A stretch of 64,000 nucleotides of DNA from Polyangia bacterium. GTDB taxonomy: Bacteria; Myxococcota_A; Polyangia; JAAYKL01. The notes under the pieces are model-generated. The model was not told the origin of the DNA and made no database searches. It saw only the letters and a list, made by a program, of their open reading frames with translations. Below, in pieces: positions 41,371-61,885 of the stretch (positions within the stretch are counted from its first letter, which is position 1; every line of letters starts with the position of its first letter). The DNA is taken from assembly GCA_050304755.1 (NCBI GenBank), contig JBNLED010000218.1:18489-82488 (forward strand). The letters run 5' to 3'. The translations under genes and the position numbers were made by a program.

Positions 41371-42192
41371 ATGATGAGAGCAAGCCGCCGTTCGGTCATA
41401 TCGGTCCTGGCGCTGATGATGTTGAGCCCCGTACCGGCGTCGTCGGAACCCCTCCCCGGGACGTTCGACGACAACCGCGCCGCCGCCCGGATTCGGGAGA
41501 TCGCCGACGCGTTCTATCCGAACTACGACGCGGGGCTGTGCCCCTATTACGGCCGGATCTGGAAGGATGAGTACGCGACGAAGCAGACCTTCGGGGATAC
41601 CGGAACGACGGTCTGGAGACACTACACCGAGGCCCTGGCGGCCGCGGGGCTCTCCCCGGAGCGGCTAGACTGCACCCTATACGCCAAGGAGATCCTCAAG
41701 GCGGGGCTCCACCGGCGGGACTACCGGCGGCTCTGGCGGGAGCACCACAAGATATGGAAGGATGACGGGTTCTCGGGCTGGAGCGTCGGGTACCTCCTCA
41801 CCGAGAAGTTCGGCTGGCGGGCCTACGCCGTCATCGATCCGGAGGCGCCGGACTACGCCTACTACACGAGCTTCTTCGAGAACCGGAACGAATACCCGGT
41901 GTGGCGGCAGCCCAACATCCCCATCGCGGGGTACTTCATCGCGGGCAGGGACGACTCGGCCATCGAGGCGCTGCTCCGCCGACATCCCTTCGGCTGGGGC
42001 TTCAGCGAGGGGGGGATCCACACCTGGATCACCCAGGGGACGGACCTCAGGGAGTGTCACTTCGACAGCGGCCCCTCGAGGCGCTACGACGCCGACAAGC
42101 CCTACCGCCTGCTGGAGTCCACCCGCTTCATCCGCTTCAACGACTACAACGTCCACCTGGTGGTCTTCCCCCCGGAAGCCGATCCGCAGTGA
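41371..42192 (+). CDS. secreted hypothetical protein (Trp/Tyr-rich; conserved-looking Cys, His, Asp could form a papain/transglutaminase-like triad)
   Basis: AGGAGG RBS. Signal SVISVLALMMLSPVPASS. No recognisable family. Confidence 0.6.
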   Translation: MMRASRRSVISVLALMMLSPVPASSEPLPGTFDDNRAAARIREIADAFYPNYDAGLCPYYGRIWKDEYATKQTFGDTGTTVWRHYTEALAAAGLSPERLDCTLYAKEILKAGLHRRDYRRLWREHHKIWKDDGFSGWSVGYLLTEKFGWRAYAVIDPEAPDYAYYTSFFENRNEYPVWRQPNIPIAGYFIAGRDDSAIEALLRRHPFGWGFSEGGIHTWITQGTDLRECHFDSGPSRRYDADKPYRLLESTRFIRFNDYNVHLVVFPPEADPQ

Positions 42193-42229
42193 CCGAACCG
42201 CCCCTGTCGTAAAGAAATCCCCATCAATA
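42186..42229 (+). repeat. 44-bp direct repeat copy 1 (GCAGTGACCGAACCGCCCCTGTCGTAAAGAAATCCCCATCAATA), covers the stop codon of 41371..42192
   Basis: Second copy at 43611..43654 with 1 mismatch. Brackets the transposase and its REP array. Confidence 0.8.
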
Positions 42230-42565
42230 CGGATGGGGACGGGGGAATGCCCCGTGCCTCGAGGACGGCGCCTTTGTCGTCTCCGGTCAGGCGCATCCGG
42301 GGGACATCTTCGGTCGTGGCGAGCCCGGGGAGACGGTGCTCTATGCCGACAGCTTTCCCGGCGAGCCGGGGATCCTGATGCATTTTTCGCTGAGTACCGT
42401 AACGACGGTACCCTGTCAGGGGAGAGAGGACACCCGTTCAGAGCGGCGAAAACGCAGTGGCGGCCCGGCCGGCTTTTCAGGGTCAAAACGGGTTGACGAA
42501 AAGCGAGGGACACCTGGAACGCAGGCGGCGCCAGCGACCGTGATCAGGTTACAGCAGTTGACTTA

Positions 42566-43291
42566 TCACTTCTTGGAGACCCCGGCGTCCGGATCCCCTC
42601 GGGAACAGGGGAGGACCGACAAGCCGTCAGTTTCAATTGTGGCGCCCAGAGGCGTCTCGCCCCGTTCCGATGGTCGGTCGTCGATCAGGCCGTTCTTCCT
42701 GAGATACTCGTCGCAGAGCTCGCGGTACCGCTTCTGTCTTTCTGCAGCGCTCTTTCCGAGGGAGAGGTATTCCCGCGGCATCGTGAGCATCCCAGTGAAC
42801 CACGACTTCTTGCCGTTGGCGTAGAACTGGTACGTGGAGTAGGCGTAGCGCGACGGATGGCTCACCATCCCGGCGCGGACGGGATTGGCGTCACCGTAGA
42901 ACATCACCTCGAGCAGCCTCCCCTTGGCATCGATCTCTTTTGTTTTGGGGCGGTCATAGGCCACCTTGCCCTGTCTTCGGTGTCGGCGGTTGTATCCGGC
43001 GCCGAACCGAGAATGGGCGTTTCGCATCCAGTTGCCGAAGGCCTTCAGGCAATCCTCGAGGGGGTGATTGGCGTAGTCGAGCTGTCCGGTCTCATGGGGG
43101 TGGTTGCTCATGATGCAGAAGGAGAAGAAGCGCACGAACTGCAGTATACCGGGGGTCAGGGTTTTTTGGAGGCTGGCCAGGTAGGCGTTTTTGTCCTCGC
43201 TGGATTCGAGGACCCTCTCGCGATTATGTCCCCGCCACATCTTGTGAAAGATGCCGGTGGTACGGATGGTATCGCGTCGGGCCCGTCTCAT
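42566..43291 (-). CDS. IS200/IS605-family (RayT-like) HuH Y1 transposase
   Basis: HPH (HuH) motif in CIMSNHPHETGQ, C-terminal Tyr region YAYSTYQFY, ~240 aa. The annotated ORF's N-terminal 96 aa merely translate the REP array (IGGTEVP repeats) and were trimmed. Confidence 0.7.
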   Translation of the reverse strand: MRRARRDTIRTTGIFHKMWRGHNRERVLESSEDKNAYLASLQKTLTPGILQFVRFFSFCIMSNHPHETGQLDYANHPLEDCLKAFGNWMRNAHSRFGAGYNRRHRRQGKVAYDRPKTKEIDAKGRLLEVMFYGDANPVRAGMVSHPSRYAYSTYQFYANGKKSWFTGMLTMPREYLSLGKSAAERQKRYRELCDEYLRKNGLIDDRPSERGETPLGATIETDGLSVLPCSRGDPDAGVSKK

Positions 43292-43380: not shown

Positions 43381-43607
43381 AGAACAGTGCTACACCGCCA
43401 GAGGGCCAATCCGTCGCCACCCTTGGGACCTCCGTCCCTCCGATCTTCTCCAACCCTGCTCCGATCTCTGGGACCTCCGTCCCTCCGATTTCCGATCTTC
43501 GATCTCTTGGGACCTCCGTCCCTCCGATCTCGATCTCTTGGGGACCTCCGTCCCTCCAACCCTCCTCAACCCTCCTCAACCCTCCGGCCTCCGTCCCTCT
43601 CCGATCT
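43381..43607 (+). repeat. REP-like palindromic unit array (4x TTGGGACCTCCGTCCCTCCGATCT plus degenerate copies)
   Basis: GGGAC-CTCC-GTCCC is an imperfect palindrome (hairpin). Lies immediately 5' of the Y1 transposase and is the reverse complement of the 40925..41200 array core. Confidence 0.7.
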
Positions 43608-43610
43608 CTC

Positions 43611-43654
43611 GCAGTGACCGAACCGCCCCTGTCGTAAAGAAATTCCCATCAATA
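43611..43654 (+). repeat. 44-bp direct repeat copy 2
   Basis: See 42186..42229. Confidence 0.8.
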
Positions 43655-43730
43655 TATCAGGAATATAACGGTGGTCATGGGATGGGTTCCGCTGCATCCA
43701 CTTGTTCGACTTTGAAAAGTCACGACGGGC

Positions 43731-45671: not shown

Positions 45672-46301
45672 ATGAATAACTCCAAGAACAAGCTGCTGGC
45701 GTGCCTCGCCGGCGCGACCCTAACCGTGTCGTCCGGGGGGACGGAGGCGGCACAGAACAGTCTGACCGAGGTGCCGGAGGAGCTTATCGGCGGCGGCGAC
45801 ACCGACGGAGATCTCCTGCGGGATCGCGAGTGGGCGGCCTCGACCGTTCCCGCCATCAACCCGGATCTGGATATCCTGACCCACGCGCGCCGCTCACTCC
45901 CCTGGGAGAACCTGGAGACGCTCCTGATGATGGTGGCCGATGAAGCCCCTGAATCCCTCGAGGGCGTTGAGCGGATCTTGGTCGCGGCGCTGAAGGCGAG
46001 CGGCGGAATCACCCGAACGCGGGTGATCTCGGAGTGGGCGTTGTCCCTGTCCGATGCCAGACGGACCACCGTCGCCAGAGCGCTGGCCCATGACTTCTTC
46101 TGCCTCGGCGCCGACATCGCGGCGGCCCACCTCGCCGCCGATTCGAATCGCGAGGTCCGCCGAGCGGTGGTCGATATCGCCGGGGCGCGGATGAGAGAGT
46201 ATCCCGAGCACTACAGGGGGATCCTTCATGAATTGTCCGATGATCCGGACGCGCAGATCCGCGCCGCCGCCAGGGCGGTTCTGAGAACAACGTCACACTA
46301 A
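45672..46301 (+). CDS. secreted HEAT/PBS-lyase-like repeat protein
   Basis: Signal KLLACLAGATLTVSSGG. Repeated ..AR..A...L......R....A...A helical motifs (NREVRRAVVDIAGA, DAQIRAAAARAV). Confidence 0.65.
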   Translation: MNNSKNKLLACLAGATLTVSSGGTEAAQNSLTEVPEELIGGGDTDGDLLRDREWAASTVPAINPDLDILTHARRSLPWENLETLLMMVADEAPESLEGVERILVAALKASGGITRTRVISEWALSLSDARRTTVARALAHDFFCLGADIAAAHLAADSNREVRRAVVDIAGARMREYPEHYRGILHELSDDPDAQIRAAARAVLRTTSH

Positions 46302-46302
46302 T

Positions 46303-46583
46303 CCCGAGATCCCCAGCAGAGATCCTCACCCGAGTTATCCTTTATCTTTTAATTTAAAGGAGTTATAACTTTCTAGAAAACTTTTGGTCCTCTTCGTCCG
46401 ATAGGGAGGGCATGACACTGCCAAAACAAGGGCCGTGATGTAACGCCACACCGACAAAATCCGACCTGCGACCATCGGGAATAGGCTGATCGAGGGCTCG
46501 CAAAAGAATCGGCCGGGACTCAGAAAGGCGACGTCAACATTTCAACCCGGGTGGGGATTTTCTCAACCCGGGTGGGGATTTTC
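46303..46583 (+). mobile_element. MITE-like element copy A (degenerate left end, duplicated right TIR AACCCGGGTGGGGATTTT)
   Basis: Shares ~100 bp left and ~90 bp right blocks with copy B, including the GGTCCTCTTCGTCCGATAGGGAGGGCATGACACTGCCAAAACAA core. Confidence 0.6.
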
Positions 46584-46630
46584 TGATAGTGAATATATAG
46601 GATGTTACGCATTATCGGGAGAATGCTACT

Positions 46631-48052
46631 TTGAATCCCAAATTGTTTTGCCGTTTGAGCACGGGCGGCGGTGGGCCTTATAACGCCTTAGTCGGTTTCC
46701 CGTGTTGGGCAGTCGCAGTCCTGTCGGGACTCACGGCGCTGCTCATGTGCTGCTCCGGCGCACCGGGCGATCGAAGAACCGCCACTCCTTCGGGGACTGT
46801 GACTGCCGATACCGTAGTCGACGCTCCCTGGAATGTCCCGAGCACACGCAGCGAATCGTCGTCATCGGTTTCACAGGTCACCAATCGCTGTCGCTGCGAA
46901 AGCCGGGCTTCGTTGCTCGGATGGGTCGGCTCCACCGCGGTCGTCAAGCGCGAGGACTGCTTCATACAGACGACGGACAATTCCCTCGATTGCGAGACAC
47001 GTTCCGTTCTGGCAGTGCGCAGCGTTGACGGGCGAACTGTGGTCGAGACGATAAGCGACGTACCGAGCGAGTTGATGCCCACCCCGAAAGCCGATACACT
47101 TGAGCTCGCGCGGCATCGAATTCTTTTGATTGAAGCATCGGATACACTATATTCATCCGTACGGCGTTACCTGCTGCGGGTCATCCCGGTCGACGGGGCC
47201 GCTGAGCTGCTCGACGAGAGTGTTGCGATCGCGCAGGATAGACGAACTTATCATTGCGGCAACGTCTCCCTATCCCAAACCCTGTCGGTCAGCGGCGACG
47301 GGGTGCATTTGGAGCACGATCCGGAGTTCGGCTGGGCACCGTCAGTGGACGGCGCGACGATCTTGGCGGTGACCGCATCGGAATCCGCCGGAGACCCGGG
47401 GGACGGGGATCCGGAGTTCGACTACCTCATGGCAGCGCCGGCCGAGCACACACCGAAGAGTATACTGCGCGCAAAATCGACGCCGTGCCGGGTCGTAACA
47501 CAATGGGGTTTCGACGGCAGCGAGGACGCGCATCCCGATGAGACCTTCTTGGGCTGGGACGGCGATCGAGCGGTGTTTGAGCCGTGGGGCGGGCATCCGT
47601 ACACGCTCGATCCGAGGCACAAATGTGCTCGCCGTCACGCAACCGGAACCGTTGATCCAAACCCGGGCCAACCGGTTTCGGGCAACTACGACATGTATCC
47701 GGAAAAGGAACGTGAGCGGGACGACCCGCAGCTGGTGCTGGTAACCGATGCCGACCCCGCGGTCCTTGAGAAGCAAATTGAAATGCTCATGGAAGCCTCT
47801 CCCACCGAGGCGCCCCCTGTGCCCACACACCTTCTCTTATTGTTGGTGTCTCCGCATCGGGTCCAAACAGCAGCGGCATGGACACAGTTGATGGGATACG
47901 TTTCCGGAGAAGCATCGAACCTGTCCGCCGCCTATCCTAGGCTCGCCGGTGCCTGTCGTTCGTTGAGCGGCAAGTCACTTCTCATCAATTTGTCGTTCGG
48001 CGATGCCGACGGTTTCGAAAACCATGTGATCGCGTTGCCGGAAGAGCAATAG
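46631..48052 (+). CDS. hypothetical lipoprotein (473 aa), lower GC than flanks, directly flanked by two MITE-like copies
   Basis: Signal AVAVLSGLTALLMCCSG. No family recognised. GC about 58% versus about 68% nearby. Confidence 0.6.
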   Translation: MNPKLFCRLSTGGGGPYNALVGFPCWAVAVLSGLTALLMCCSGAPGDRRTATPSGTVTADTVVDAPWNVPSTRSESSSSVSQVTNRCRCESRASLLGWVGSTAVVKREDCFIQTTDNSLDCETRSVLAVRSVDGRTVVETISDVPSELMPTPKADTLELARHRILLIEASDTLYSSVRRYLLRVIPVDGAAELLDESVAIAQDRRTYHCGNVSLSQTLSVSGDGVHLEHDPEFGWAPSVDGATILAVTASESAGDPGDGDPEFDYLMAAPAEHTPKSILRAKSTPCRVVTQWGFDGSEDAHPDETFLGWDGDRAVFEPWGGHPYTLDPRHKCARRHATGTVDPNPGQPVSGNYDMYPEKERERDDPQLVLVTDADPAVLEKQIEMLMEASPTEAPPVPTHLLLLLVSPHRVQTAAAWTQLMGYVSGEASNLSAAYPRLAGACRSLSGKSLLINLSFGDADGFENHVIALPEEQ

Positions 48053-48054
48053 GA

Positions 48055-48374
48055 GATCCCCACCCGGGTTATCCTTTATCTTTTGATTTCTAGGAGATCC
48101 AACTTTCTTGGAAACCTTTGGTCCTCTCCGTCCGATAAGGGAGGGCATGACACTGCCAAAACAAAACAGAAGATTTTTCTCTTCGCATTCCCGCGATGCC
48201 AACGGAGACGTTTGTCCACCGCGCAACTCCCGCCAGGATAGCGTGTCGTTTTGGCGACAAATCATCCGAAATCCGACCGGCGACCATCGGGTATAGGCTG
48301 ATCGAGAGCTCGCAAAAGAATCGGCTAGGACGCAGAATGGCGACGTCAACATTTTAACCCGGGTGGGGATTTTT
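48055..48374 (+). mobile_element. MITE-like element copy B (complete; TIRs GATCCCCACCCGGGTT / AACCCGGGTGGGGAT)
   Basis: 16-bp terminal inverted repeats read directly from the sequence. ~320 bp with no ORF. Confidence 0.65.
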
Positions 48375-48390
48375 CGGTATTTTTCGGATT

Positions 48391-48573
48391 TTAGCGGGGC
48401 GAACGAGCACACCGAAACCCGAGGCCGTTGTTCCAGAACGTGGGCAAATCCCAGTGTGAGAACCTAACAAGTTCGTCGGAATAAATAGTGTTCCATCCGC
48501 CGCCATGCAGCATCGGATAGACGCCCTCGTCATCCCAATGCGAGATCGACCATTCTGACACGTTTCCAGTCAT
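48391..48573 (-). pseudogene. C-terminal fragment of a formylglycine-generating-enzyme (FGE-sulfatase/SUMF1-domain) gene
   Basis: GNVSEWSISHWD...LHGGGWNT...GFRCARSP matches the FGE-domain C-terminus (GNVWEW...RGGSW...GFRc). Upstream frames are broken. GC about 52%. Confidence 0.6.
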
Positions 48574-48874
48574 GTCGCACAGACCGCTTCATGGCGGCCA
48601 CCAGACGCCGGCGTTGCTCCACGTAGGCCGTCGCCTGGGAGCACGACTGCTCCGCCTTGACCCGGTAGGGATTGGGCTCTCATGAACAGTCCAGTTCAGC
48701 TCCTGATGTCAAAGGCTCCGTGCGACCACTGCTGACGCACCTTGCCGCGTTTTTCCTTGCCGATCTATTGGGATTTCAAGGTATAACCTTCGTGGTCTAG
48801 CGCCTTCATTTCTTGTAAGGGATGCTCTCGCTGGGGAAATTATCCTTTGAAAAAACTCGAACAGAAGGATTTCA

Positions 48875-49984
48875 TTGCGCCGCTCTTTCGTCATTGCATT
48901 TATTTTTATTCTGATCTCGATTGCCCCGCCTGGCGCGTCTGCACAAGAGAGCGCGGTTTCTACGATGCCGTCGAGTCCCGGCCCTGTTTGGACCGTGGTT
49001 CTGATGGAAGGCACCGATTCATCGCCGACTCTGCAACTGGTCGATGAGCTTTCGTTGGTCACCACCCTGGTGTCCATCGAGGTCGTTCAAGTACCGGCAA
49101 CATTCGATACCGCCGATCTGTCGGAAAAGCTTCGGCTCATCCGCGAGGTGTCGCCGGCGGCCGCAGCGGCCATATGGCTCGATGGAGCGGCGACCTATCG
49201 CCTGGCCGTTGTCGAAGACGTTGCGGCGCCCGGCCCGCCGTCTGTCCACTATATAGAGGCCGACGCGTTGCCGTCGGTGGCGCTCCTCACCCGGGATTTT
49301 CTCATCGGGCGGGGGGCTGTTTCGGAAGCGGAGGCGCTACCGGATGACGCTCAGAATCCCGTGCCGAAAAGCCAGGCCGCTGATGCGGAAACTCCGTGGG
49401 ATGAACCGGCTGAAGCGCCTCGGACGCCGTCGCCGACCCTGCTCGGAGTGGGCTTACTCGGGGAAGGGGGGAGCGGTCTCCAAGGGGGAAAGAGCGCGGG
49501 GGATTGGTTTGCGGGGGGCGGCATAACCGTTCATGTCGCGCCGTGGAAAATTTTGGCCCTTCGGTGGACGATCACCGGCGGCTCCGGGGCGTCTCGCACC
49601 ACAGAAGAGGTCGTCATCCATCAACATTGGGGGGCGGCGGCGCTTTCATTGTTCCTGAGGTCCAAGGTCGGGACGCATCTCTTCATCGGCGGTTATCTCT
49701 CCGCCGGCGTCGTGCTCAACCGCGTTCGGCTCGAGCACGAGGACACCGGGATGGCGCCGGTGACCGCCAACAAGTGGACGCCCGAGGTCGGCGCAGGGGT
49801 TCATCTCGCGGTACCGGTCGGCGCCCGGGTCCGGGTCGGCCTGGACGCGGGAGGGTACGGACGCCTTCTCAAATACCACTACAACAACGCGCGGACCGGC
49901 GAAGAACTCTTTGCATCGACCACCTGGGTATGGAAGGCCTCTGCTTGGGCGGTCGTTTTTCTGCCGTTCGAAAAAAAGCCGTAA
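48875..49984 (+). CDS. secreted protein, possible outer-membrane beta-barrel C-terminal half
   Basis: Signal VIAFIFILISIAPPGASA. Gly-rich middle. Alternating hydrophobic C-terminal strands. Confidence 0.6.
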   Translation: MRRSFVIAFIFILISIAPPGASAQESAVSTMPSSPGPVWTVVLMEGTDSSPTLQLVDELSLVTTLVSIEVVQVPATFDTADLSEKLRLIREVSPAAAAAIWLDGAATYRLAVVEDVAAPGPPSVHYIEADALPSVALLTRDFLIGRGAVSEAEALPDDAQNPVPKSQAADAETPWDEPAEAPRTPSPTLLGVGLLGEGGSGLQGGKSAGDWFAGGGITVHVAPWKILALRWTITGGSGASRTTEEVVIHQHWGAAALSLFLRSKVGTHLFIGGYLSAGVVLNRVRLEHEDTGMAPVTANKWTPEVGAGVHLAVPVGARVRVGLDAGGYGRLLKYHYNNARTGEELFASTTWVWKASAWAVVFLPFEKKP

Positions 49985-50025
49985 AGAATGCGAACGCCGG
50001 GGAAATCAGCGGGCGAGGAGATTTG

Positions 50026-50631
50026 ATGAGCATTCAGGAAATACAAACCGACGACTCGCTCATGGCCCGCCTTAAACAAGGGGACATCGACGCCCTCGGC
50101 GTTCTGTTCGAGCGGCACGGCGCCATGACAGCGCGGGCGATTCGCCGGTTTGCCCCCCATATCTCTGATGATGAGGTAAGGGATCTGGTCCAGGATGTCT
50201 TCCTGAAGGTAAGGCGCCTCTCTCGAAATTACACGGCCCTCGAGAAATGTTCGGCGTGGATCTTCGGCATCGCGGCCAATACCGCCGGCAATTGGAAGAA
50301 GAAGGGGGCGAAGCGGGCGACGCTGCTCGCGGCGCATCGCGAAAAGTCGGTCGGGCTCAGCCTGGTGGTGGACAATTCGCCCGAAGCCGCTGTGGCAAAT
50401 CGGGAGCTGGTCGAGCGGATCCTCGATACGCTGTCATCGGAGGACCAGCGGCTGTTCGTCCTCTCGGAGGTGGACGGGTTTTCCGCGCGGGAGATAGGAG
50501 AGATGGTGGGGCTCAAAGAGGGAGCGGTATGGACAAGGCTCCATCGAATTCGAAATACGCTGCTCGGCAAATCGCGACAGCCCCGGAAAAGGGATGCCCA
50601 TCGGCTTGCACCCAAAAAGAGGATGTCATGA
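50026..50631 (+). CDS. ECF-type RNA polymerase sigma-70 factor
   Basis: Region 2 (DLVQDVFLKVRR) and region 4 (LSSEDQRLFVLSEVDGFSAREIGEMVGLKEGAVWTRLHR) motifs. Confidence 0.85.
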   Translation: MSIQEIQTDDSLMARLKQGDIDALGVLFERHGAMTARAIRRFAPHISDDEVRDLVQDVFLKVRRLSRNYTALEKCSAWIFGIAANTAGNWKKKGAKRATLLAAHREKSVGLSLVVDNSPEAAVANRELVERILDTLSSEDQRLFVLSEVDGFSAREIGEMVGLKEGAVWTRLHRIRNTLLGKSRQPRKRDAHRLAPKKRMS

Positions 50632-51974
50632 GGTACTGTGACAATATTCATCGATATTTGGACGGAGAGCTCACGTGTGACGATGCGGTGCAATTCATGT
50701 CGCATCTAGATAACTGTCCCGCTTGCAGTGATGACCTCGCCTTTTTGGATCTCGCGCGAGAAGTGGGCACGGCGCGGTGGGGACTGACGGTCGGCGCGCC
50801 CGATGCACCGGCGGTCTCGACGCTTTTGGAGCAGGCCACACTCGAGCAGGACCGCGAGGTCGCCCGTCGCCGCTACCGCCGTGTCTGGTTGGCGGTCGCG
50901 TCGATAACGCTGTTCCTGGCGGTCGGAGCACTTTTCGCGGGGTATGGCGCTGAGCACACCGGCGGTGTTGCGACGGGCGCCTCCTTCAACCAGCGGTCAC
51001 TTATCCCATCGACACGCGTCGAGGGCGGTGAGGCTCGGGGCGGGGTGCTGTTGCCCGAGGGGATTACCGAGCGACCGCATCGAATATGGACCGGGCCGGA
51101 GAGTCGCGTCTTTGCAGTTTCGGACGATGCCGCGCTTCTCGACATCGAATCCGGGAGTGTGGTCGTGCACACTGTGCCGGACGCACCGTCGTTGACGATA
51201 TATGCCGGTCCCTATGTCATCTCCGATATCGGCACTACCTTCGAGGTACGGTACGACCCCGCGCGAGGTCTGGATGTCACGGTGGCGCGCGGACGGGTGA
51301 GCGTGGACGGGTTCGGTGATGTCCCGGTACGGATCGAGGCCGAGCAGTCGCTGACGATCGTGCCGGAGGACGGCTTTATGGCGCTCTCGGTGGATGACAC
51401 CGCGGCGGCACGCCTTGACGAAATGCTCGGTGATTCGGCGTCTGACGAAGCGCTCCTTCGGCCTCCGGCGGTCGCCACGAGCAAGGGCCGGCTTTCGGTT
51501 CAGGGCCCTGCGCCGCCCCTCGACGCTTGGCGCAAAATGGTGCTCTCGGGGCGCTACGCCGAGGCAGAGGACGAGATGACCGCCTACCTCGCTCGGGACA
51601 GTCGAAACGCCGATGTCTGGTCGATGCTCGGGGATTGCCGGCGAAAGGCCAGCGACTGGCGGGGTGCCGTCTCGGCCTATGAGCAGGTGTTGCGATACGG
51701 CAGCGGCGTGGGCGCCCGGCGGGCGGCGGTTCTGATGGGCGAGGTCTATCAGGACGAGCTGGGAGAGCTGGACCGCGCGGCGGCGGCATACGAGCGATGT
51801 CTCGAGCGCGGAGACGGGGGGCGGCTCCGCGGCACAGTGCTCTTGAAGCTGGCGCGCGTCCGGCAAGCGCAGAAGAAAACCGACAAGGCAATAAAAGCGC
51901 TCGAGGAGATCCTCGAGGGCCCGTTCGACGAGTCCTTGAAACAGCGTGCGGAAGAGCTCAAACGTACGTTGTAG
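50628..51974 (+). CDS. anti-sigma factor: zf-HC2 N-terminus, single TM, FecR-like and TPR periplasmic domains
   Basis: HLDNCPACSD zinc-finger anti-sigma motif, TM VWLAVASITLFLAVGALFAGY, ATGA start/stop overlap with the sigma gene. Confidence 0.75.
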   Translation: MRYCDNIHRYLDGELTCDDAVQFMSHLDNCPACSDDLAFLDLAREVGTARWGLTVGAPDAPAVSTLLEQATLEQDREVARRRYRRVWLAVASITLFLAVGALFAGYGAEHTGGVATGASFNQRSLIPSTRVEGGEARGGVLLPEGITERPHRIWTGPESRVFAVSDDAALLDIESGSVVVHTVPDAPSLTIYAGPYVISDIGTTFEVRYDPARGLDVTVARGRVSVDGFGDVPVRIEAEQSLTIVPEDGFMALSVDDTAAARLDEMLGDSASDEALLRPPAVATSKGRLSVQGPAPPLDAWRKMVLSGRYAEAEDEMTAYLARDSRNADVWSMLGDCRRKASDWRGAVSAYEQVLRYGSGVGARRAAVLMGEVYQDELGELDRAAAAYERCLERGDGGRLRGTVLLKLARVRQAQKKTDKAIKALEEILEGPFDESLKQRAEELKRTL

Positions 51975-52011
51975 GACATCGTCCCGATGGCATGAATAAG
52001 GAGGAAGAGCG

Positions 52012-53571
52012 ATGAGGAAAACAGTGTTGGTGACAGGGGTTATCGTGTGCGGTTTGTGCGTGCTGCAGTGCGACGTGCCGGTGGATGTCGAGTTTACCCC
52101 GACAGTCGGATTGGTGGGAGCAGGTGACGACCCGATGGTGGTCAATCTCGACGAAGGGTGCGAGCCCGGGGAGACGCTGGTTTATCCCATACGCGACCGA
52201 AAAGGGATCACCCAGGTGACGACCGGGCTGGACGGTGAGTTGCTCGCCAAGGCGGACGACTGCCGAACCTACACATTTGACGGCGAAGCCTGGCGACCCA
52301 ACTATTCGCTGATATATCGGTATGCCCAGCCGGGGATTATCCCGAATGGGGCGGAGGGGGACTATCCCCGAGGGAACAGGTGTGTCGACATTTGGTACCC
52401 GGAAGGATTGGGGGAAATCCTCGAGTTAAACGTTGCCGGGATTGGAGTTTACAACCGAAACTATATCAACACCCTGGATTTCGGGCTTTTCGCTGTGGAC
52501 GAGGGTTGGAGCAGCGACGATGCAAAGTTTACTTACGGAACGGCGGTTTGGGGCACGTCCCGGTACGCGTATCTGGAAACACGCATAAGGCTTTATTATC
52601 CGCCGGAATTTTTCTCTGTGGAAGGCAATGATGTGACAAAGAGTGATGAGTTCGTTTCCGAACGGTTCTTCAAGGCGGGGGGAGGGATTTCTCTGTACGA
52701 GTATGCAGATGACGAGGGAGCTCATATGGATAGGGGCTTGACCTATGTACCGGATATCCCCTTCATGGATGTCTTCGGCAACTCGATCGCCGACTTTTTT
52801 GCCGTTGGCAACGAGCTCCAAACGGCATGTCCCCGAGTGACAGGGAATGTGTACCACTGCAACGACAGCGCCTGCGAGCTGGAGCTCAACGTTTCCGGAG
52901 TAACCCTCAAATCGATCCACGGCGTCTCGGGGGACAACCTCTTCGTGGTGGGCGGCAACGATGAGCGCAGCACCAACGGTGTGATCTTTCAACGCAGAAA
53001 GGGGAAATGGATTCGATACGACCTTCCGACGGACATCCCCTTGAACAAAGTCTGGGCGGCCGATTCGAAAACGGTGTACGCGGTGGGGGGCGCCTACGAC
53101 AAGGACGGCGCGCCGAGCAGTGTCGCCCTGAGGCTTTCGGGCGGCGAATGGGAGATTCTGGATGTCGACTCGACGCGCCCCCTCTATGACGTGTTCGGTC
53201 TGTCCGGCGACGATGTCCACATCGTCGGGGAGGAGGGGTTCTTTCATTACGGCACCGCGCGGCAGAACGACTGGCCCGCCATCCAGGCCGATGAGCTCTG
53301 CGATCTGTACAATAAGATGTACGACGGGTGTCACTTCGCTGAGGTCGGCGACCCATTGGGAGTCCAAACCTGTGAGACCGCGCTCCTGGACGTTTTCGCC
53401 GAGGGCGGCGATTGCGCGGATTCGGCTTTCTCGCTGCTTGACTGTATGTTGCACCAGTCGTGTGACGAGGCCCTGAAATTCAGCGAGGATCCGACGAACC
53501 CGGACGCCGCGTGCGCAACCGAATACGCCGCCGTGGACTGTCCGTCATTCCCTCCTGAGATCTCACAGTAA
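52012..53571 (+). CDS. secreted/lipoprotein hypothetical (519 aa) downstream of the sigma/anti-sigma pair
   Basis: Signal VIVCGLCVLQC. Cys-rich C-terminal tail. Propeller-like repeats (VYAVGGAYD, VHIVGEEGF). Confidence 0.7.
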   Translation: MRKTVLVTGVIVCGLCVLQCDVPVDVEFTPTVGLVGAGDDPMVVNLDEGCEPGETLVYPIRDRKGITQVTTGLDGELLAKADDCRTYTFDGEAWRPNYSLIYRYAQPGIIPNGAEGDYPRGNRCVDIWYPEGLGEILELNVAGIGVYNRNYINTLDFGLFAVDEGWSSDDAKFTYGTAVWGTSRYAYLETRIRLYYPPEFFSVEGNDVTKSDEFVSERFFKAGGGISLYEYADDEGAHMDRGLTYVPDIPFMDVFGNSIADFFAVGNELQTACPRVTGNVYHCNDSACELELNVSGVTLKSIHGVSGDNLFVVGGNDERSTNGVIFQRRKGKWIRYDLPTDIPLNKVWAADSKTVYAVGGAYDKDGAPSSVALRLSGGEWEILDVDSTRPLYDVFGLSGDDVHIVGEEGFFHYGTARQNDWPAIQADELCDLYNKMYDGCHFAEVGDPLGVQTCETALLDVFAEGGDCADSAFSLLDCMLHQSCDEALKFSEDPTNPDAACATEYAAVDCPSFPPEISQ

Positions 53572-53670
53572 GATCCCCACGAGTAAGATCCCCACCGGGT
53601 TGTCATTCAGAATCCCCACCCGTGTAAGATCCCCACCCGGGGTATCCTTTATCTTTAAGAGATCCCTCAC
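53569..53670 (+). repeat. cluster of four tandem MITE left-end fragments (GATCCCCAC...) ending with GGGGTATCCTTTATCTTT
   Basis: Starts exactly at the stop codon of 52012..53571. Matches the left terminus of the MITE-like family. Confidence 0.55.
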
Positions 53671-53796
53671 CCTATCAGCGTCTGTGTTCGATGTCTGGAG
53701 CGAGAGTTTGGGGTAGGGTTCAGGCTTGCGATGGAACAACTGGGGTTGAGAAATGTTACTACATACGAAGGTATTTTAGCCACAAGGAGGTGTCAA

Positions 53797-54234
53797 ATGC
53801 CACGGAAGATGCTTCGAAAAGTGACGAGCGTGGGTGTCGCCGCCATTCTGTGCAGCCTCGCGCTTGTCGGGTGTACCGGAGAGAAGGTCTACAAGATGAA
53901 AGCCACTGCCGCATTGCCGGCGGCCGAAGGGTCGGTGTCCGCGTGGGAGGGCAGCATGGACGAGACAGTGGTCGAAGTCGATGCGCAGTATCTCACCCCG
54001 ACGGAAGAGACCAAGGATCCGCTCTACTACACCGCCTGGGCCAAGAACGGTAACACTATCACTCGCCTTGGCAACCTGAAGCTGGAGGGAGATCGCTTCG
54101 GCAGGCTTGTGTCATCCACCCACATGACGAATTTTGAGGTCATGGTCACTGCCGAGGAGAAGCCCGTCCTGAAGAAACCCCAGTCGCTGCCGATCCTCAC
54201 GTCCACGACCATCTACAGTTGGGATTTGACCTGA
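53797..54234 (+). CDS. small lipoprotein (145 aa)
   Basis: AAGGAGG RBS. MPRKMLRKVTSVGVAAILCSLALVGCTG lipoprotein signal. Confidence 0.6.
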   Translation: MPRKMLRKVTSVGVAAILCSLALVGCTGEKVYKMKATAALPAAEGSVSAWEGSMDETVVEVDAQYLTPTEETKDPLYYTAWAKNGNTITRLGNLKLEGDRFGRLVSSTHMTNFEVMVTAEEKPVLKKPQSLPILTSTTIYSWDLT

Positions 54235-54382
54235 AATAGAAGCACGGAACTCAGGACAAACATTGGAACTTGACCGCGATACCTGTCCGCACGGGTAGGA
54301 CACCACGAGGAGCACGAAGACAATTTTCAATTTTGTCCACATCTTCTCGAGGGCGCTGCCCCTCACCTGTTTTCCGACGTCG

Positions 54383-55135
54383 TCAACTTTCGAGGGAAGC
54401 ACTCGAATTTGAAGACGCCCCGTACAAGACGGGCATTCTTCCTTTCCATTTTTGCCACAAGTCATCGTCGCTGATCAGTTCTGTCATAAAATGCGCGACG
54501 TTGATGCGGCTTATCTTACCGGCATTAAAAATCGCACTGCGCGTTGGGGAAACAAACGCCTCATATTCAGACACCGTATCTTCATCGATCAACCCGTCGG
54601 GTCGAACCGCGCTCCATTCAATCATACTATCGTTCGGGCCTATTTGTGTGCGCAAATAGTCTGCTGCCGATTCATTGTCCTTATGCGGAGGCACCAGCAG
54701 TCGAATCAATCCGACCACGAAGCGTTGGGCGGCGGAAATGCGCTCATCTTCATCCTTATTGACAACACCCGAGGAGCTCATCAGCACAAACTTCACGCGG
54801 TTTCCTACCGAAGAAGTTTTTCGAATCGCTTCGCAAAACCGACGTTCCGCCTCAGCAACAAGTCTTCGCGGATGACCGTACATCCCTTTAAACGAAATGT
54901 TGTGCCCCAAACAGGATGCCACGACATCACACCCCTGCACGTACGATTCTATCTCCGCATCGCTTAGATCCGATACACTGCCGCCGATTGTCGTAAGCTT
55001 CTCTCGATTTTTGAGAAACTCCGGCAGTTTTTCCGGCGAACGAACGACTATCGTCACCTCATGGCCGCGACTGAGCAACATATCGGCAACATGACGACCC
55101 GTGGCGCCGCTGGCGCCGAGCAGTACAATTTTCAT
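54383..55135 (-). CDS. NAD(P)H-binding atypical SDR / NmrA-like oxidoreductase, low-GC (about 50%) gene
   Basis: GGAGG RBS then MKIVLLGASGATGRHV Rossmann motif. GC clearly below the window average. Confidence 0.8.
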   Translation of the reverse strand: MKIVLLGASGATGRHVADMLLSRGHEVTIVVRSPEKLPEFLKNREKLTTIGGSVSDLSDAEIESYVQGCDVVASCLGHNISFKGMYGHPRRLVAEAERRFCEAIRKTSSVGNRVKFVLMSSSGVVNKDEDERISAAQRFVVGLIRLLVPPHKDNESAADYLRTQIGPNDSMIEWSAVRPDGLIDEDTVSEYEAFVSPTRSAIFNAGKISRINVAHFMTELISDDDLWQKWKGRMPVLYGASSNSSASLES

Positions 55136-55525
55136 TTGACTCTCCTCCAATTGTCTACTCCGGAAATACCGGAGACGGCGGCCTCATGATTTCAATCGAA
55201 AACGCACTCGTATAGCCAAAGGGCCCCGTTCTGTTAGGTAGATAACCCGCCAAACTGTAAATGCAACGTTAGTCGCCTGTCGGAAAAAGGTTCGTCAATC
55301 GTGGGTGACTGTGCCCTTTCGGCCCGCGATCTCGACCGCCAATCGGGCGTCGGGGCGGAACACGCCTCTCGCTCCCTTGGCGGCCACGCTCATCTGCGTC
55401 TCGACGTCCCGTCCCGGCGTCGCTTCCGCATCCAGCTCGACCTCCAGTTCTATGATGATTTCTCCGTCGCCTCAGGAGCCACCGAAGCCGTTTAGGCGAA
55501 GGCGGGCCTCGTCGACGTCGACAAG

Positions 55526-56179
55526 TCAACCCGGGTGGGGATTTTTGCAGATCGACACGGTGGCAGCCCCGGAGAGGCCGCAGATCCCCGAGGTCGAGGG
55601 CTCAGTGTCCCCCACGTAGGAGCATACCCCGTCCCGGTGGTCGTAGCTCAGCTCGCCGGTCTCCGGATCCCAGTTGGCGGTGGCCGAGCCCCCCCACTGG
55701 CCGGCGTCCTCGTTGTAGCGCATGAGGATGCTGGTGTGCCCGACGTACTCCCGCGCGAACCCGTAGGCGATCCGCTCTCCCACGGCCGCCGCCATCTCCG
55801 CCTCGGTCAGGGACAGGTCGCTGTTGGCGCAGGCGCCGTGCTCGTCGAGCACCACCTCCGGATCGCCCTTCTCCACTACGACACTCCATTCGCAGAAATC
55901 GCACGGGATCGAGGGATCCGCCACCGCGGTGAGCGGATACCGCACGCGGCATACGTCGGCGGGATCGTCGCTGTTGGTCAGGATGTACAGATCCTCGTAT
56001 CCATCATACGCGATTGTCGCCTGGCTGGTCTCGGGAACGGCGCCCGACTCCGAATCGCCCTCCGGACCGGCATCGGCCGTATCGCCCGGCGCGATGTCGT
56101 TTGTCTCGTCGGCGTCGTCGCAGCCGCTCGCCGCAAAGAGCGTGCAGATGATCATGTGTAAGAGCGCATTCCGATTCAT
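55526..56179 (-). CDS. acidic lipoprotein hypothetical
   Basis: MNRNALLHMIICTLFAASGCDD lipobox. Confidence 0.6.
   Translation of the reverse strand: MNRNALLHMIICTLFAASGCDDADETNDIAPGDTADAGPEGDSESGAVPETSQATIAYDGYEDLYILTNSDDPADVCRVRYPLTAVADPSIPCDFCEWSVVVEKGDPEVVLDEHGACANSDLSLTEAEMAAAVGERIAYGFAREYVGHTSILMRYNEDAGQWGGSATANWDPETGELSYDHRDGVCSYVGDTEPSTSGICGLSGAATVSICKNPHPG
55529..55548 (+). repeat. solo MITE right-terminus fragment (CAACCCGGGTGGGGATTTTT)
   Basis: Identical to the right TIR of copies A and B. Abuts the 3' end of the 55526..56179 gene. Confidence 0.45.
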
Positions 56180-56222
56180 TGTAGTCTCCCTCTTTTCTCG
56201 ACGCATCTGAAGAGCGCCGGAT

Positions 56223-56531
56223 TTACCATCCCTCCGTCAGGGCGTATAGGTCGTCGATCAGGATGGTGTGCCCCAGCACGGTCTGGAGGGTCTTGGTGAC
56301 GGTCTGGTTTTCGAGGACGACCTCCTTCTCAAGGATCCCCACGGCGATATCCGGACCGGTCTCCTCGTCGCTGCTGCTACTGTCCGCGTCAGAACCGGTG
56401 TCGGGGAAGCCGTCCATGGTCGAGGTATCGCGTGCAACATATGACCCGGCCGGTCCGTTGCTCGTGTCCGAGCAGGAGAAGAACAAAACGCACAGACCGG
56501 GTAGTAGTCGAACCGCGCTCGAGTGGGTCAT
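56223..56531 (-). CDS. small lipoprotein hypothetical
   Basis: MTHSSAVRLLPGLCVLFFSCSD lipobox. ~100 aa. Confidence 0.45.
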   Translation of the reverse strand: MTHSSAVRLLPGLCVLFFSCSDTSNGPAGSYVARDTSTMDGFPDTGSDADSSSSDEETGPDIAVGILEKEVVLENQTVTKTLQTVLGHTILIDDLYALTEGW

Positions 56532-57178
56532 GAGAAACCGCCTCCTTTGGGGTGTATTGGGATGGAAGTAACCGATTTGATTTGTCTGATAGTCCATTCC
56601 AAAGGTGGAGATGTGCGAAGAATGTGCCAATGCCTGGACGACACATATCTATAATAATTACGAGATATAATAGATTGTGCCAAAAACAGGATTGTGCCAC
56701 CTCGACCCTCCCCGCGGCCCGATCGACCCTTCCCGCGGCCCGATCGACCTCGCCCGATCTCCGATGTCTTTTTACCTTCAGGGAAAATTATTCACGCCGT
56801 CCACTCCGGCCGCCGCCTTTCGCTTGAGCGAATAATACGACTCCCGTAGAAGCTCAATGGTGATGTGGTGAAAGAGCGCGGTGAACCCCCGCTGTCGCGA
56901 CTTCGAATACCGACTTCGAATACCGACGGGAATGGACTCACCAGATGGCGAAGTCAACGCACCAGTTTATCCTTTTGATATATAATATTGCGGGAGTCTT
57001 GCTACTATCATAACCTTTGGGGAAAAGAACAGTCGGTAAAAGTGAATGAGGTTTGCGGTGGAAGGTCAGATTTTTGGGGATTCAGAAGAAAGCGGAGATG
57101 ATCGGATCTTGGATTTGAACGCTCATGTGCAAACGAAGAGGGCGCTCATTTGTCGTACCCGTACAGCGGGGGGGCCTC

Positions 57179-58906
57179 ATGAAAACAAAAGCACTATGCT
57201 ATTTGACGGCCCTGCTCTTCTATAGCCAATCGGGTTGTTACAAGACCTCGGCGGAAGAACAGGATTCGAATTCATCGACCCGCGGCACGAGCGACGCTGA
57301 TGGTGATGCCGACTCGGACGCGGACACAGACGCGGAGGTTTATGTAGATACGGATTCGTCGCCGAAGGGGGATAGTGACGGGGATGTCGATACGGATACG
57401 GATTCATCCACGGAAGGGGACACCGACACAGATACTGACGGAGATACGGACAGCTCCGACTCGGAAAGAGGCGGGTCTATTGACACCCAACCCATTCGGG
57501 ACACGGACACCATACAAGAAAGCAACGGGAAGCTTGTCTGGGTGATTCAGGCAGGGGGCCCCCTCGACGACGGCGTTTCGGCGATCGTGCCACTGCAGGA
57601 CGAATCGTTCTGGATTGTCGGACGATATGCGGACGGCGCGGTTTTCGGCGAAGACGATCCCAGCGAGACCGTATTGTCCGCAACGAATGAACAAACCGGC
57701 TATCTCGCCAAATACCATGCAGACGGCACGTTGGATTTTGTAAAACCCGTGGCCGGCGGCGGCGAGACCGATGTCCAGTCCGTCGCAGCAGCGCCTGATG
57801 GGGCGATCTGGGTTGTCGGCGAGTTTTCAGGCACCGCCGAATTCGAACAAGGCGAGCCGAGTGAAACGACCCTCATCGCTACGGATTGGTCCGATATCTT
57901 CATCGCGAGATATCATTTTGACGGTGCACTAAGCTTCGTCACCTATGTGGATCGCACCGGCAGCTCCGGACACCAGGTGCCGGCGCGTATTTCAGTCGCG
58001 GATGACGGCACGATTTGGGTGTTGGGACGGTTTGAGGGAACCGCCGTACTGGGCGCTGACGAGCCCAATGAAACCACATTGGAATCTGCCGGGGGGGTCG
58101 ACCTTTTCATCGCCAAGTACAATGCCGATGGTTCTCTAAACGCTGCCAAGCGGGTGGGTGGCGATGCCGGCGAGGATGTGGGATACTCCCTGTCGGTGCA
58201 GGAGGACGGGGCGGTTTGGATATCCGGAGTGTACTGGGGCGACGTGATATTCGGCCGGGGCGAGGTCAACGAAACCGTGTTGACATCGATCAATAACAAC
58301 GTCTTCATCGCCAAGTACAATGCCGACGGCACGCTGGCGCAGGCCCAAACGCTGCTGGGAACGGAGTGGGGATGGGAGCCGAGGGTCGCCGCACTCGCGG
58401 ACGGCTCGTTGTGGGTGACGGGCATGTACTACGGCAACACCACTCTCGACCCGGGCGGTCCAAACGAAAGTCCCTTGGCTTCAAGCGGCCAGTTCGATCT
58501 CTATTTGGCCAGGTATCAGCCCGATGGCGCCCTTGTTTCTGCGTCGCGAATCGCCGGGACCGGATGGGATGAGTACAGCCGGATCGCCGTCTCAGAGGAC
58601 GATACCTTTTGGATCACCGGTATGTTTCAGAACACTGTCGTGTTCGGGGAAGGCGGAGTGAATGAAACCCCGTTGACCGCGAGCACCGGTGGATACAGCC
58701 GATTCATCGCCAAGTACCGGGACAACGGGACATTGGCATTTGTCAAAGAGACTGGCGCCAGCCAGGAGATCACGGCGGAGTCCGGCGGCTCGGCCTGGGT
58801 TATCGGTACTTTCGGCGATACCGCAACCTTTGGAAAAGGGGAACCCAATGAGGTCACCCTCACCACAAGAGGGGAAGCGGATATTTCGGTTGCGAAATAT
58901 CGATGA
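57179..58906 (+). CDS. lipoprotein with poly-Asp linker and 7-8 SBBP-type beta-propeller repeats
   Basis: Signal LTALLFYSQSGC. Repeats D[IL]F[IL]A[KR]Y..DG.L (DIFIARYHFDGALSFV, DLFIAKYNADGSLNAA, NVFIAKYNADGTLAQA...). Confidence 0.75.
   Translation: MKTKALCYLTALLFYSQSGCYKTSAEEQDSNSSTRGTSDADGDADSDADTDAEVYVDTDSSPKGDSDGDVDTDTDSSTEGDTDTDTDGDTDSSDSERGGSIDTQPIRDTDTIQESNGKLVWVIQAGGPLDDGVSAIVPLQDESFWIVGRYADGAVFGEDDPSETVLSATNEQTGYLAKYHADGTLDFVKPVAGGGETDVQSVAAAPDGAIWVVGEFSGTAEFEQGEPSETTLIATDWSDIFIARYHFDGALSFVTYVDRTGSSGHQVPARISVADDGTIWVLGRFEGTAVLGADEPNETTLESAGGVDLFIAKYNADGSLNAAKRVGGDAGEDVGYSLSVQEDGAVWISGVYWGDVIFGRGEVNETVLTSINNNVFIAKYNADGTLAQAQTLLGTEWGWEPRVAALADGSLWVTGMYYGNTTLDPGGPNESPLASSGQFDLYLARYQPDGALVSASRIAGTGWDEYSRIAVSEDDTFWITGMFQNTVVFGEGGVNETPLTASTGGYSRFIAKYRDNGTLAFVKETGASQEITAESGGSAWVIGTFGDTATFGKGEPNEVTLTTRGEADISVAKYR
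57295..57470 (+). repeat. Asp-codon-rich low-complexity repeat (GACGCGGAC/GATACGGAT units)
   Basis: Encodes DADGDADSDADTDAE...DTDTDTDGDTDSSDS. Confidence 0.6.
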
Positions 58907-58980
58907 GTCGAGCACAAGATGATTCAGGTATTACCTTTACGGCCTCGTAGAACATCCTCTGTTTGAAGGTCGTCATCGAG

Positions 58981-59975
58981 TTACTCGCCGAGGATGAACG
59001 CGCGTCTCCCATCGACGAAGTTACGGATCTCGTCCACGCGGCTCAGGTATTCGGAATTGTCGGCCCGTTTCCTGCCGTCGGCCATCAGATCCGGTGCGGC
59101 GCGGCAGAGGAGATTATCGATGCGGCCGTCGATGAACTCCCTGTTGAACGTCGTGGAGAGGACGTGTTCCACCAACTCGCAGAACCGATCCTGGTATTCG
59201 GGGATGTCGTACAACCTCGTCATCAGGTGATTGCAGAAGCCGGGACAGATCCCTTCATCAAGGGACGCGTCGGTGATAATCGCTTCATCGAGAACGCCGT
59301 TCTCCTCTGACCAGAGATGGCCGAACGTCAACTCGAGGCCCCAGGGGAAGACCACCCATCTGTCATCCGGAGACTCGGGGTCCCTGTAGAGGTAGTAGTT
59401 CTTCTTGATGTGATCGTGGTTCTGAATGACGGCCATGACGGCCATATGGACGAGATACTCGTTGACATCCAATACCTCATTGATGGCGACCTCGAAATCG
59501 TCTTCGGGAAGCTGAAGGGGTTCTCGATGAGGTCGTCATGTGGGATATCGCCCTTTTTATGGTTGTAGATGCAATCGTAGGTGTCGAGAGAATCCACCGG
59601 CGTCATATCACCCCCCGGCGACCAGCAACTGCTGTCGGGATCGGCCTCGTACATGCTGCCGGTCTCGTTGTTCAACCCCCTCACTCTCAGAAAGTCCCCG
59701 CCGATTCGCTCCAGATGCCACATGACGCCGTAATACTGCCCGTTGATTCTCAAGTGGACCATCTCGGCCTGCGGCGTAGGAATCCACGACGCGTTTCGGA
59801 ACAGCTCCAGACCGAGGTAGTTGCGCAGCATGGACTTGTCGTTCCACTCGGCCCGCAGAATAAGGCGATCGTGTGTATCCGCTAAGGCGCTATTGTGATA
59901 TCCAAGCCGCCTTGATCTGTGGCTTGGTGATACCGCATCCCCCGTCGTTGCCGTGCTTTTGGTTGCGCGGAACAC
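58981..59975 (-). pseudogene. CotH-family (spore-coat-protein-H-like kinase fold) gene with a frameshift near 59470-59530
   Basis: Upstream frame VHLRINGQYYGVMWHLERIGGDFL plus downstream frame KNYYLYRDPESPDDRWVVFPWGLELTFG are both CotH hallmarks. They sit in different frames with ~145 nt overlap. Confidence 0.6.
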
Positions 59976-60681: not shown

Positions 60682-60785
60682 GCTACCTTCTCTCGCGGGT
60701 GGTTTCGTTTTATGTACTTGTATAGCACGTTATCGAGGTCAGTCAGCTCTACCCCGCCCCATGGATTGAGGCTATACCCGGGTTA

Positions 60786-60920
60786 TCCTTTATCTTTTGG
60801 AGATCCCCACCCAGGTTATCCTTTATCTTTTAATTTCAAGGAGATCCAACTTTATTGGAAACCTTTGGTCCTCTTCGTCCGATAGGGAGGGCATGACACT
60901 GCCAAAACAAGTATTGCCAA
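60786..60920 (+). mobile_element. MITE-like element copy C (duplicated left end plus conserved core, right half missing)
   Basis: CCCGGGTTATCCTTTATCTTTT appears twice, then ...GGTCCTCTTCGTCCGATAGGGAGGGCATGACACTGCCAAAACAA, identical to copies A and B. No right TIR follows. Confidence 0.55.
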
Positions 60921-61707: not shown

Positions 61708-61885
61708 GGTTACCTTCCCGTGGACCCGGTTATCCTATTGGGAAACCAGGGCTACGGCAAAGAAAAAATAGGATGGTCCGCTGGGACTTCCAAAGAGAAC
61801 CGTAGACGCGCCGGGAGATCTATCGCATAAATGGGGGAGCTTATCGAATGGCTCTGTTTCGCAACCACGGAGGGGCATGGGGTCC

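Follow-up and report, generated by a model that had tools for sequence, protein, structure and literature searches.

Five repeat loci in a Polyangia genome probably derive from an insertion-sequence-like element encoding a RAYT-like HUH/Y1 transposase

A stretch of 64,000 nucleotides from a Polyangia bacterium (GenBank assembly GCA_050304755.1, contig JBNLED010000218.1, positions 18,489 to 82,488 of the forward strand), referred to here as the window, contains five loci of a short repeat. These are copy A (46302–46583), copy B (48053–48374), a tandem array near 53.6 kb (53569–53670), a fragment near 55.5 kb (55513–55545) and copy C (60776–60958), all on the plus strand and numbered from the first letter of the window. 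We conclude, with a probability of about 85%, that the five loci are decay products of an insertion-sequence-like element of approximately 1.2 kb that encodes a RAYT-like HUH/Y1 transposase. A preliminary description of the same DNA had interpreted the repeats as a new family of miniature inverted-repeat transposable elements (MITEs), possibly spreading a small RNA or a regulatory module. Describing copies A and B as MITE-like is largely right, in the sense that they are non-autonomous deletion derivatives; the small-RNA interpretation is incorrect, and the finding is only modestly novel.

The conserved core is the start of a transposase gene

The sequence that is best conserved between the copies reads ...CCGATAGGGAGGGC ATG ACA CTG CCA AAA CAA, which is a strong Shine-Dalgarno (SD) sequence, a start codon and six codons. 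The SD sequence, GGGAGGG, is separated by one nucleotide from the ATG, and the first residues encoded are MTLPKQ. Over 46 nt this core is exact in copies A and C, while copy B differs by a single substitution and a single inserted base. It had been attributed to all copies, but is present in A, B and C alone, the 53.6- and 55.5-kb fragments being without it.

In copy C the reading frame is uninterrupted for 22 codons (MTLPKQVLPNTTYLVTRRCTQR), after which it is broken. The encoded peptide retrieves P0001, a protein annotated as “transposase, partial [Polyangiales bacterium]” (E = 2.7e-5) whose relatives carry the HUH motif MSNHYHLV, and the 22 residues are 100% identical to residues 1–22 of P0053, a metagenomic protein. 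Copies A, B and C share the 5' untranslated region (5'UTR) of the contig that encodes P0053 (L004, 822 bp), and copy B also shares the 3' non-coding DNA of that contig, which carries an internal deletion of 689–1007 in the numbering of L087, the contig of the parent element described below. The core consists of the 5'UTR, the ribosome-binding site, the ATG and the initial codons of a transposase gene that has been deleted. All through the family a CCGATA...GGCATG motif stands ahead of the start codon, which is why the core looks so constant, and this constancy fits constraint acting while the copies still belonged to working elements. Searches of Pfam and NCBIfam with the 31-aa and 69-aa fragments returned nothing useful.

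The proposal that the core is a functional small RNA, or a cis-regulatory module carried by the repeat, draws on two properties of this sequence: no other stretch is conserved as well across A, B, C, L004 and L087, and the 5'UTR is predicted to fold into small hairpins that cover the SD sequence and the AUG. However, the SD sequence, the ATG and the N-terminal transposase codons account for the core fully. The preliminary description had noted that a match to a known noncoding RNA family would mean that the core is not novel; the Rfam 15 covariance models gave no match at the gathering threshold in the whole window, and none even at E values up to 1 in 46200–48500. The fold of the 5'UTR does no better than shuffled sequences (z = -0.95) and covariation is minimal, a double change being seen in only 2 of the 13 predicted pairs across six sequences. 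Furthermore, a fold that occludes the SD sequence would regulate the transposase in intact copies and would have no independent function. We therefore regard a small RNA or regulatory module as extremely improbable. The predicted hairpins would fit, if weakly, a translational damping of the transposase.

A parent element with the same ends

The closest full-length relative of P0053 is P0165, which is 85% identical and is encoded on L087, a contig from a metagenome other than the source genome. The element on L087 is 1,207 bp long and its ends are CCCCACCCGGGTT and AACCCGGGTGGGG, with the inverted repeats and the core seen in the window copies. Its open reading frame (ORF) of 302 codons starts with an ATG at position 348 and ends at 1253. 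Reading A and B as MITEs requires a parent with the same ends, and L087 provides such an autonomous parent.

The window copies can be expressed as pieces of this element. Copy B corresponds to L087 positions 260–366 joined to 1257–1472, so that what it lacks is precisely the coding sequence, beginning at codon 7 and reaching 3 nt past the stop codon. Copy A corresponds to positions 260–365 joined to 1377–1472 and has therefore suffered the larger deletion; at the 5' point the deletions of A and B begin within 1–2 nt of each other. The middle of copy A had been thought to be a different sequence of about 100 bp, but its match to L087 identifies it as a shorter remnant of the 3' region that is kept in B. 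Copy C corresponds to positions 260–413 only. A further relative, L089 (79%), begins on the left with four CCCCACCCGGGTTGA units in tandem, which resemble both the array at 53569–53670 and the end duplications of A and C.

The family encodes a RAYT-like HUH/Y1 enzyme

An exhaustive profile search of a library of 1.84 billion proteins gave 2,068 representatives of the transposase family. Complete members are about 295–320 aa in length, and in alignments the HUH motif SNHYH and the tyrosine of AYxLxNPVxAGLV are invariant. The C-terminal half, of approximately 150 aa, is conserved, ends in FPxGT and is without a fold match. The NCBIfam model REP_Tyr_transpos matches nearly end to end (E = 1e-8 to 2e-17, 33–63 bits), and a profile search of the Protein Data Bank places Escherichia coli TnpA-REP (4ER8) first and the TnpA of ISDra2 next. 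An AlphaFold model of P0166 (pLDDT 89, pTM 0.87) was obtained; 4ER8 is also the best fold match, and the fold matches the transposases of IS608, ISDra2 and IS200 as well. The family has both the HUH motif and the catalytic tyrosine within an HUH/Y1 fold, and the parent transposase is a RAYT-like HUH/Y1 enzyme and not that of a DDE-type insertion sequence. Many members carry the JGI annotation “REP element-mobilizing transposase RayT”, and since these proteins are already auto-annotated in public data as RayT or transposase, the family can hardly be called new. Literature searches found no paper describing this Myxococcota clade.

Several known systems share features with the family. In common with the RAYT represented by 4ER8 it has the HUH motif together with a catalytic tyrosine in a Y-x-x-x-N-P-V-x-A-G-L-V helix, a gene that lies between short inverted repeats, often several on each side, and repeats that are placed beside the ends of genes. 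It differs in having a protein of roughly double the length, with the conserved C-terminal half, in scoring under the curated RAYT cut-off, and in the terminal unit of the window subfamily, which has no clear hairpin and is without a GTAG tag.

With the IS200/IS605 group (IS608, ISDra2, IS200) the family shares the Y1 HUH fold, a multi-copy habit and the lack of target-site duplication, and internally deleted, gene-less IS200/IS605 derivatives that keep both ends exist. Here, however, both ends are one unit in inverted orientation, whereas to our knowledge IS200/IS605 elements are without terminal inverted repeats and have different subterminal hairpins at each end; the match of the family to Pfam Y1_Tnp is also weak. 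The resemblance to bacterial MITEs derived from DDE elements concerns copies A and B, which are small, non-coding and intergenic, have inverted-repeat ends and have an autonomous parent with the same ends. In contrast to such MITEs they have no target-site duplication, the parent enzyme is an HUH tyrosine transposase rather than a DDE enzyme, and the window shows two complete units and three fragments within 15 kb, which does not demonstrate a high copy number.

The family is a working insertion sequence

In species-representative genomes at least 250 loci of the family were found. Most of the 80 loci listed are from Myxococcota (Polyangia, Anaeromyxobacteraceae and Sandaracinaceae), and several genomes hold 2–6 of them. 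In most loci examined there are one to four tandem short units (for example AACCTTCCCAGGTTCGA or CCCGACCGAGAGT) 50–130 bp before the ATG, and inverted copies of the unit lie 230–320 bp past the stop codon, a plan that recurs in dozens of loci. Inverted arms of 9–19 nt upstream and downstream of the gene are found in most of 53 loci examined.

One Anaeromyxobacteraceae metagenome-assembled genome (MAG) contains four family copies that are more than 99% identical and have unrelated flanks. In three of these (L076, L077 and L084) the shared sequence covers approximately 1,258 bp, and its two limits coincide exactly with the inverted repeats. The fourth (L083) agrees with them from its left repeat until shortly after the ORF, and departs from them some 250 bp short of the right end. 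No target duplication was found at either end of L076, L077 and L084, nor at the left end of L083. Near-identical copies that end at the inverted repeats without a duplication mean that the family functions as an insertion sequence and transposes without duplicating its target site, which is what an HUH/Y1 enzyme would be expected to do. Most close homologues lie on contigs of 1.0–1.7 kb, which is expected because repeats break assemblies.

Two further loci show related units. Just beyond the right end of the recently active copy on L077 there are degenerate end-like units (ACTCGGTCGTGTCCC and ACCCTCGGACGGGAA, 4138–4185), a hint that insertion takes place next to older end units, or that units stay behind. 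On L001 (4746–4820 and 4960–5003), from a Polyangiales MAG, a tRNA-Val gene is followed after about 140 nt by the start of a related element; it has two tandem CCTAGAACCTTCCCAGGTTGA units, and the end of the contig falls inside the transposase gene.

The five loci in the window

The terminal motif GATCCCCACCCGGGTT has 10 matches in the window with up to two mismatches, compared with 0.16 expected by chance, and all 10 are confined to 46.3–60.9 kb. The 15-mer ATCCCCACCCGGGTT with up to three mismatches gives 18 matches against 4.3 expected; 10 of these are real and the other 8 are at the chance level. BLAST of each copy against the window found no repeat copy in positions 1–46 kb. All five loci lie at or within a few bases of the coordinates first given for them, and copies A and B were correctly recognized as short, non-coding and bounded by inverted repeats, with spans of 282 bp and 322 bp respectively and a terminal motif far above chance. 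The left end common to A, B and C is approximately 110 bp and the right end common to A and B approximately 105 bp. Over the left 112 nt the pairwise identities are 88% (A/B), 90% (A/C) and 95% (B/C), and over the right 105 nt A and B are 92% identical. Only two of the five loci, A and B, are complete end-to-end units, the remaining three being truncated relics. The sequences that flank the window copies are unrelated to one another, and neither A nor B has a flanking direct repeat, that is, a target-site duplication.

Copy A is gene-less and internally deleted. It begins with a partial and degenerate outer left unit (46306–46315, placed by its sequence), followed by a left terminal unit with two mismatches to the motif (46320–46336), the 5'UTR (46337–46411, with the SD GGGAGGG at 46404–46410) and the residual start, where the core match places the ATG at 46412 and six codons up to 46429. 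The remnant of the 3' non-coding region occupies about 46431–46543, as defined by its match to L087, and two right terminal units follow in tandem (46544–46559 and 46565–46580), with TTTT after each. The degenerate left terminus and duplicated right terminus ascribed to this copy are thus both found.

Copy B is an element without coding sequence. Read from its sequence, it comprises a left unit (48053–48070), the 5'UTR (48071–48146), a residual start of six codons from the ATG at 48147 to 48164 and a right unit (48356–48374). The part that comes from the 3' non-coding region of the parent (48165–48355) is defined by its match to L087, and at the deletion junction (48158–48165) the two L087 matches overlap by 8 nt. 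The inverted ends match at 15 of 15 nt (ATCCCCACCCGGGTT against its complement), and the 16-bp inverted repeats pair with each other when the strand is folded as single-stranded DNA. Each of the two copies has a residual ORF, namely MTLPKQGP followed by a stop codon in A and 49 codons in B. The latter enters non-coding sequence past MTLPKQ, and only those six codons match family proteins. A scan for sigma-70 promoters and terminators inside A and B gave nothing informative.

Copy C is a 5' fragment, truncated at 60958, with a partial outer left unit (60776–60798), a full left unit (60799–60817) and the 5'UTR (60818–60892), all assigned by sequence, followed by the coding start, in which the ATG at 60893 and the 22 codons to 60958 are covered by tblastn of family proteins. 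The duplicated left end, the core and the missing right half had been noted before, but in a shorter extent (60786–60920). The 53.6-kb array was likewise known at its correct location. It consists of 4–5 tandem left-end units, where four had been counted, is partly degenerate and is without core and right end; unit 4 runs on for about 30 nt into the left end (ATCCTTTATCTTT), and the first unit overlaps the TAA stop codon of gene 52012–53571. The 55.5-kb locus had been described as a solo right terminus of 20 nt. A right end is indeed present, but the fragment is 33 nt long and 91% identical to the right end of copy A, and it supplies the last six codons (KNPHPG) and the stop codon of ORF 55526–56206(-).

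How the copies could have arisen

An intact element has at its left end one to several tandem terminal units of about 15 nt (here ATCCCCACCCGGGTT), then a 5'UTR of about 75–85 nt, a gene of about 300 codons for the RAYT-like HUH/Y1 transposase, approximately 215 bp of 3' non-coding DNA and, at its right end, the terminal unit or units again in inverted orientation. Relative to such an element copy B has lost the coding sequence and copy A a larger segment, copy C has kept only the left end and 22 codons, and the 53.6- and 55.5-kb pieces are end fragments. Single-strand excision and insertion by an HUH/Tyr site is established for IS608, ISDra2 and TnpA-REP, and by homology the present element would be expected to move in the same “peel and paste” manner, without target duplication. 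A full-length copy elsewhere could move A and B in trans, because both have kept both ends; C and the 53.6- and 55.5-kb fragments are inert.

Several results weigh against this explanation. The family does not reach the curated cut-off of 80 bits of NCBIfam NF047646, its scores being 33–63 bits, and on Pfam Y1_Tnp (PF01797) the scores are 12–24.6 bits against a cut-off of 23, which one of six proteins passes. The case for a single-strand mechanism comes from homology alone, and the terminal unit of the window subfamily gives no convincing hairpin on folding. An intact copy bounded by these ends was not recovered from the source genome, and the window holds none. Exact scans of genome and metagenome collections for the 21–22-nt core found no match, although this is a weak negative, as the metagenome set evidently lacks L087, which bears the core. 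Two sister assemblies from the same population (orthologous contigs L085 and L086) are 99.96–99.99% identical and carry the same insertions; no empty site for A or B was found in them, so the mobility of A and B is unsupported. Finally, the copies are clustered within 15 kb and local rearrangement may have contributed. A further metagenome scan with P0165 returned only relatives of up to 58% identity, none of which has the terminal repeat of the window subfamily at its element ends.

The clustering suggests an alternative in which the copies arose by local duplication and recombination in a 15-kb region of lower GC content rather than by transposition of non-autonomous units. This would agree with all copies lying in 46.3–60.9 kb and none in the other 46 kb, and with A and B flanking one gene in the same orientation with deletions that start within 1–2 nt. 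It is difficult to reconcile with the unrelated flanks of the copies, with their being 5–12% different and having different deletions, or with a family that demonstrably transposes elsewhere, and we consider it highly unlikely.

Terminal units and the relationship to REP sequences

A different alternative is that the window holds a domesticated REP (repetitive extragenic palindromic)/RAYT system, in which the 15-nt units are REPs spread by a single-copy RAYT and copies A and B are REPIN-like doublets. The transposase is RAYT-like, and its gene is flanked by inverted units in the way that RAYT genes are flanked by inverted repeat units (Nunvar 2010, PMC2817692). The units also occur alone and in tandem arrays beside stop codons. 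Moreover, in many Polyangia members of the family the unit is a small palindrome, AACCT[TCCC]AGGTT, with the compensatory variants AACGT...ACGTT and CCGA[TCCC]TCGG, and a 5–6-bp stem with a TCCC loop is present in some loci of other subfamilies, though not in all, and the part of the unit that is conserved most is CCCAGGTTCGA.

Other results speak against this reading. Copies A, B and C hold the 5'UTR and start codon of the gene itself, and 3' non-coding DNA is present also, so they must be gene copies minus the coding sequence. The lone units in the window are truncations, because adjoining element sequence is still attached to them. Whole elements of the family occur in multiple, near-identical copies. 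RAYTs, in contrast, are domesticated and typically occur about once per genome (Bertels 2017, PMC5581495). The unit of the window subfamily also folds no better than shuffled sequences: single units give z = 0.1 to 0.5 and just a 3-bp GC stem, and with z about 0 for single ends we rejected the REP-hairpin reading for this subfamily. The duplicated right end of copy A does fold (z = -2.4), as two palindromic units pair with each other. Taken together we consider a domesticated REP/RAYT system unlikely, and retain the decay of an insertion-sequence-like element as the explanation of the five loci.

The wider interest lies in the parent family, whose RAYT-like enzyme belongs to elements that act as multi-copy insertion sequences in Myxococcota and end in inverted, REP-like units. 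Such a family could be a tractable intermediate for understanding the origin of domesticated RAYT/REP systems from IS200-like transposons. Tentatively, and with more doubt than confidence, we suggest that the parent clade is an undescribed branch of the RAYT/IS200 superfamily that is still transposing autonomously, and that its solo and tandem end units represent a stage in the origin of REP arrays from a mobile RAYT ancestor. The features that might define such a branch would be a RAYT-like protein of about 300 aa with an extra conserved C-terminal half, iterated, inverted end units of the CCC(A/G)GGTT type, the lack of target duplication and a position that is frequently against stop codons. 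The loci in the window are by comparison inert or non-autonomous transposon remnants, of little consequence beyond correct annotation: the repeats should be annotated as mobile-element relics, the short MTLPKQ ORFs are not genes and the last codons of ORF 55526–56206(-) are repeat-derived.

Placement beside stop codons

The insertions were initially described as lying within 0–3 bp of gene stop codons. The closeness is real, as copy B and the 53.6-kb array both begin 0 nt after a stop codon, but the outer partial unit of copy A begins 4 nt after one, and the final 20 nt of ORF 55526–56206(-) lie within the 55.5-kb fragment. Of the four copies in the Anaeromyxobacteraceae MAG, two abut a TAG (one with a 1-nt overlap and one with a 3-nt gap) and a third is 15 nt from a TGA. 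Across 84 element ends from 42 loci, 18% are within 20 nt of a converging stop codon compared with 4% of random flank positions, a control that includes coding positions, so that target choice is not separable from selection against insertions inside genes. A target preference for the 3' ends of genes is suggestive only. IS200/IS605 elements insert 3' to a set tetra- or pentanucleotide. In the window TAA or TAG closes the flanks on the left, and no common flank motif is evident in L087 or L089.

Neighbouring features of the window

A second, different RAYT-like gene is present at 42566–43291(-). Its product contains the motifs MSNHPHE and YGDANPVRAGMV and is matched by NCBIfam REP_Tyr_transpos (E = 1.7e-7). 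On either side of the gene lies a copy of a 45-bp direct repeat, GCAGTGACCGAACCGCCCCTGTCGTAAAGAAAT(C/T)CCCATCAATA, at 42186–42230 and 43612–43655, and about five tandem GGGACCTCCGTCCCTCCGATCT-like repeats lie upstream of it at 43410–43600. It has no CCCCACCCGGG units and is therefore a separate system.

Copies A and B, in the same orientation, flank an orphan gene (46631–48052, 473 aa) in a layout like that of a composite transposon; the gene has no family match and forms a singleton cluster. Directly to the right of copy B there is a 60-aa ORF (48391–48573(-)) whose sole match is to the C-terminal end of the FGE-sulfatase domain PF03781, positions 181–255 of 255 (E = 6e-4), and which looks like a truncated gene remnant. 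The 53569–53670 array and the 55513–55545 fragment are ordered and oriented so as to bracket 1.9 kb of lower-GC DNA (51–57%), which contains a lipoprotein-like ORF (53797–54234) and a gene for an NAD(P)H-binding protein (54383–55150(-)). The arrangement may represent a derivative that carries cargo, or may be coincidental.

The copy-bearing part of the window, 46000–64000, has a GC content of approximately 51–61% in most 500-nt bins, which is lower than that of 40–46 kb and than the window mean of 63%, and the region may be variable or acquired. Other repeats in the window are of a coding type and lie at 12284–12721, 18272–18892, 20557–20780, 21718–25037 and 28760–31544. They include Asp/Thr/Gly-rich repeats of 12–18 nt, 66-nt repeats, long GCC/GCG-rich tracts on the minus strand and a duplication spaced by 1.8 kb with 72–94% identity.

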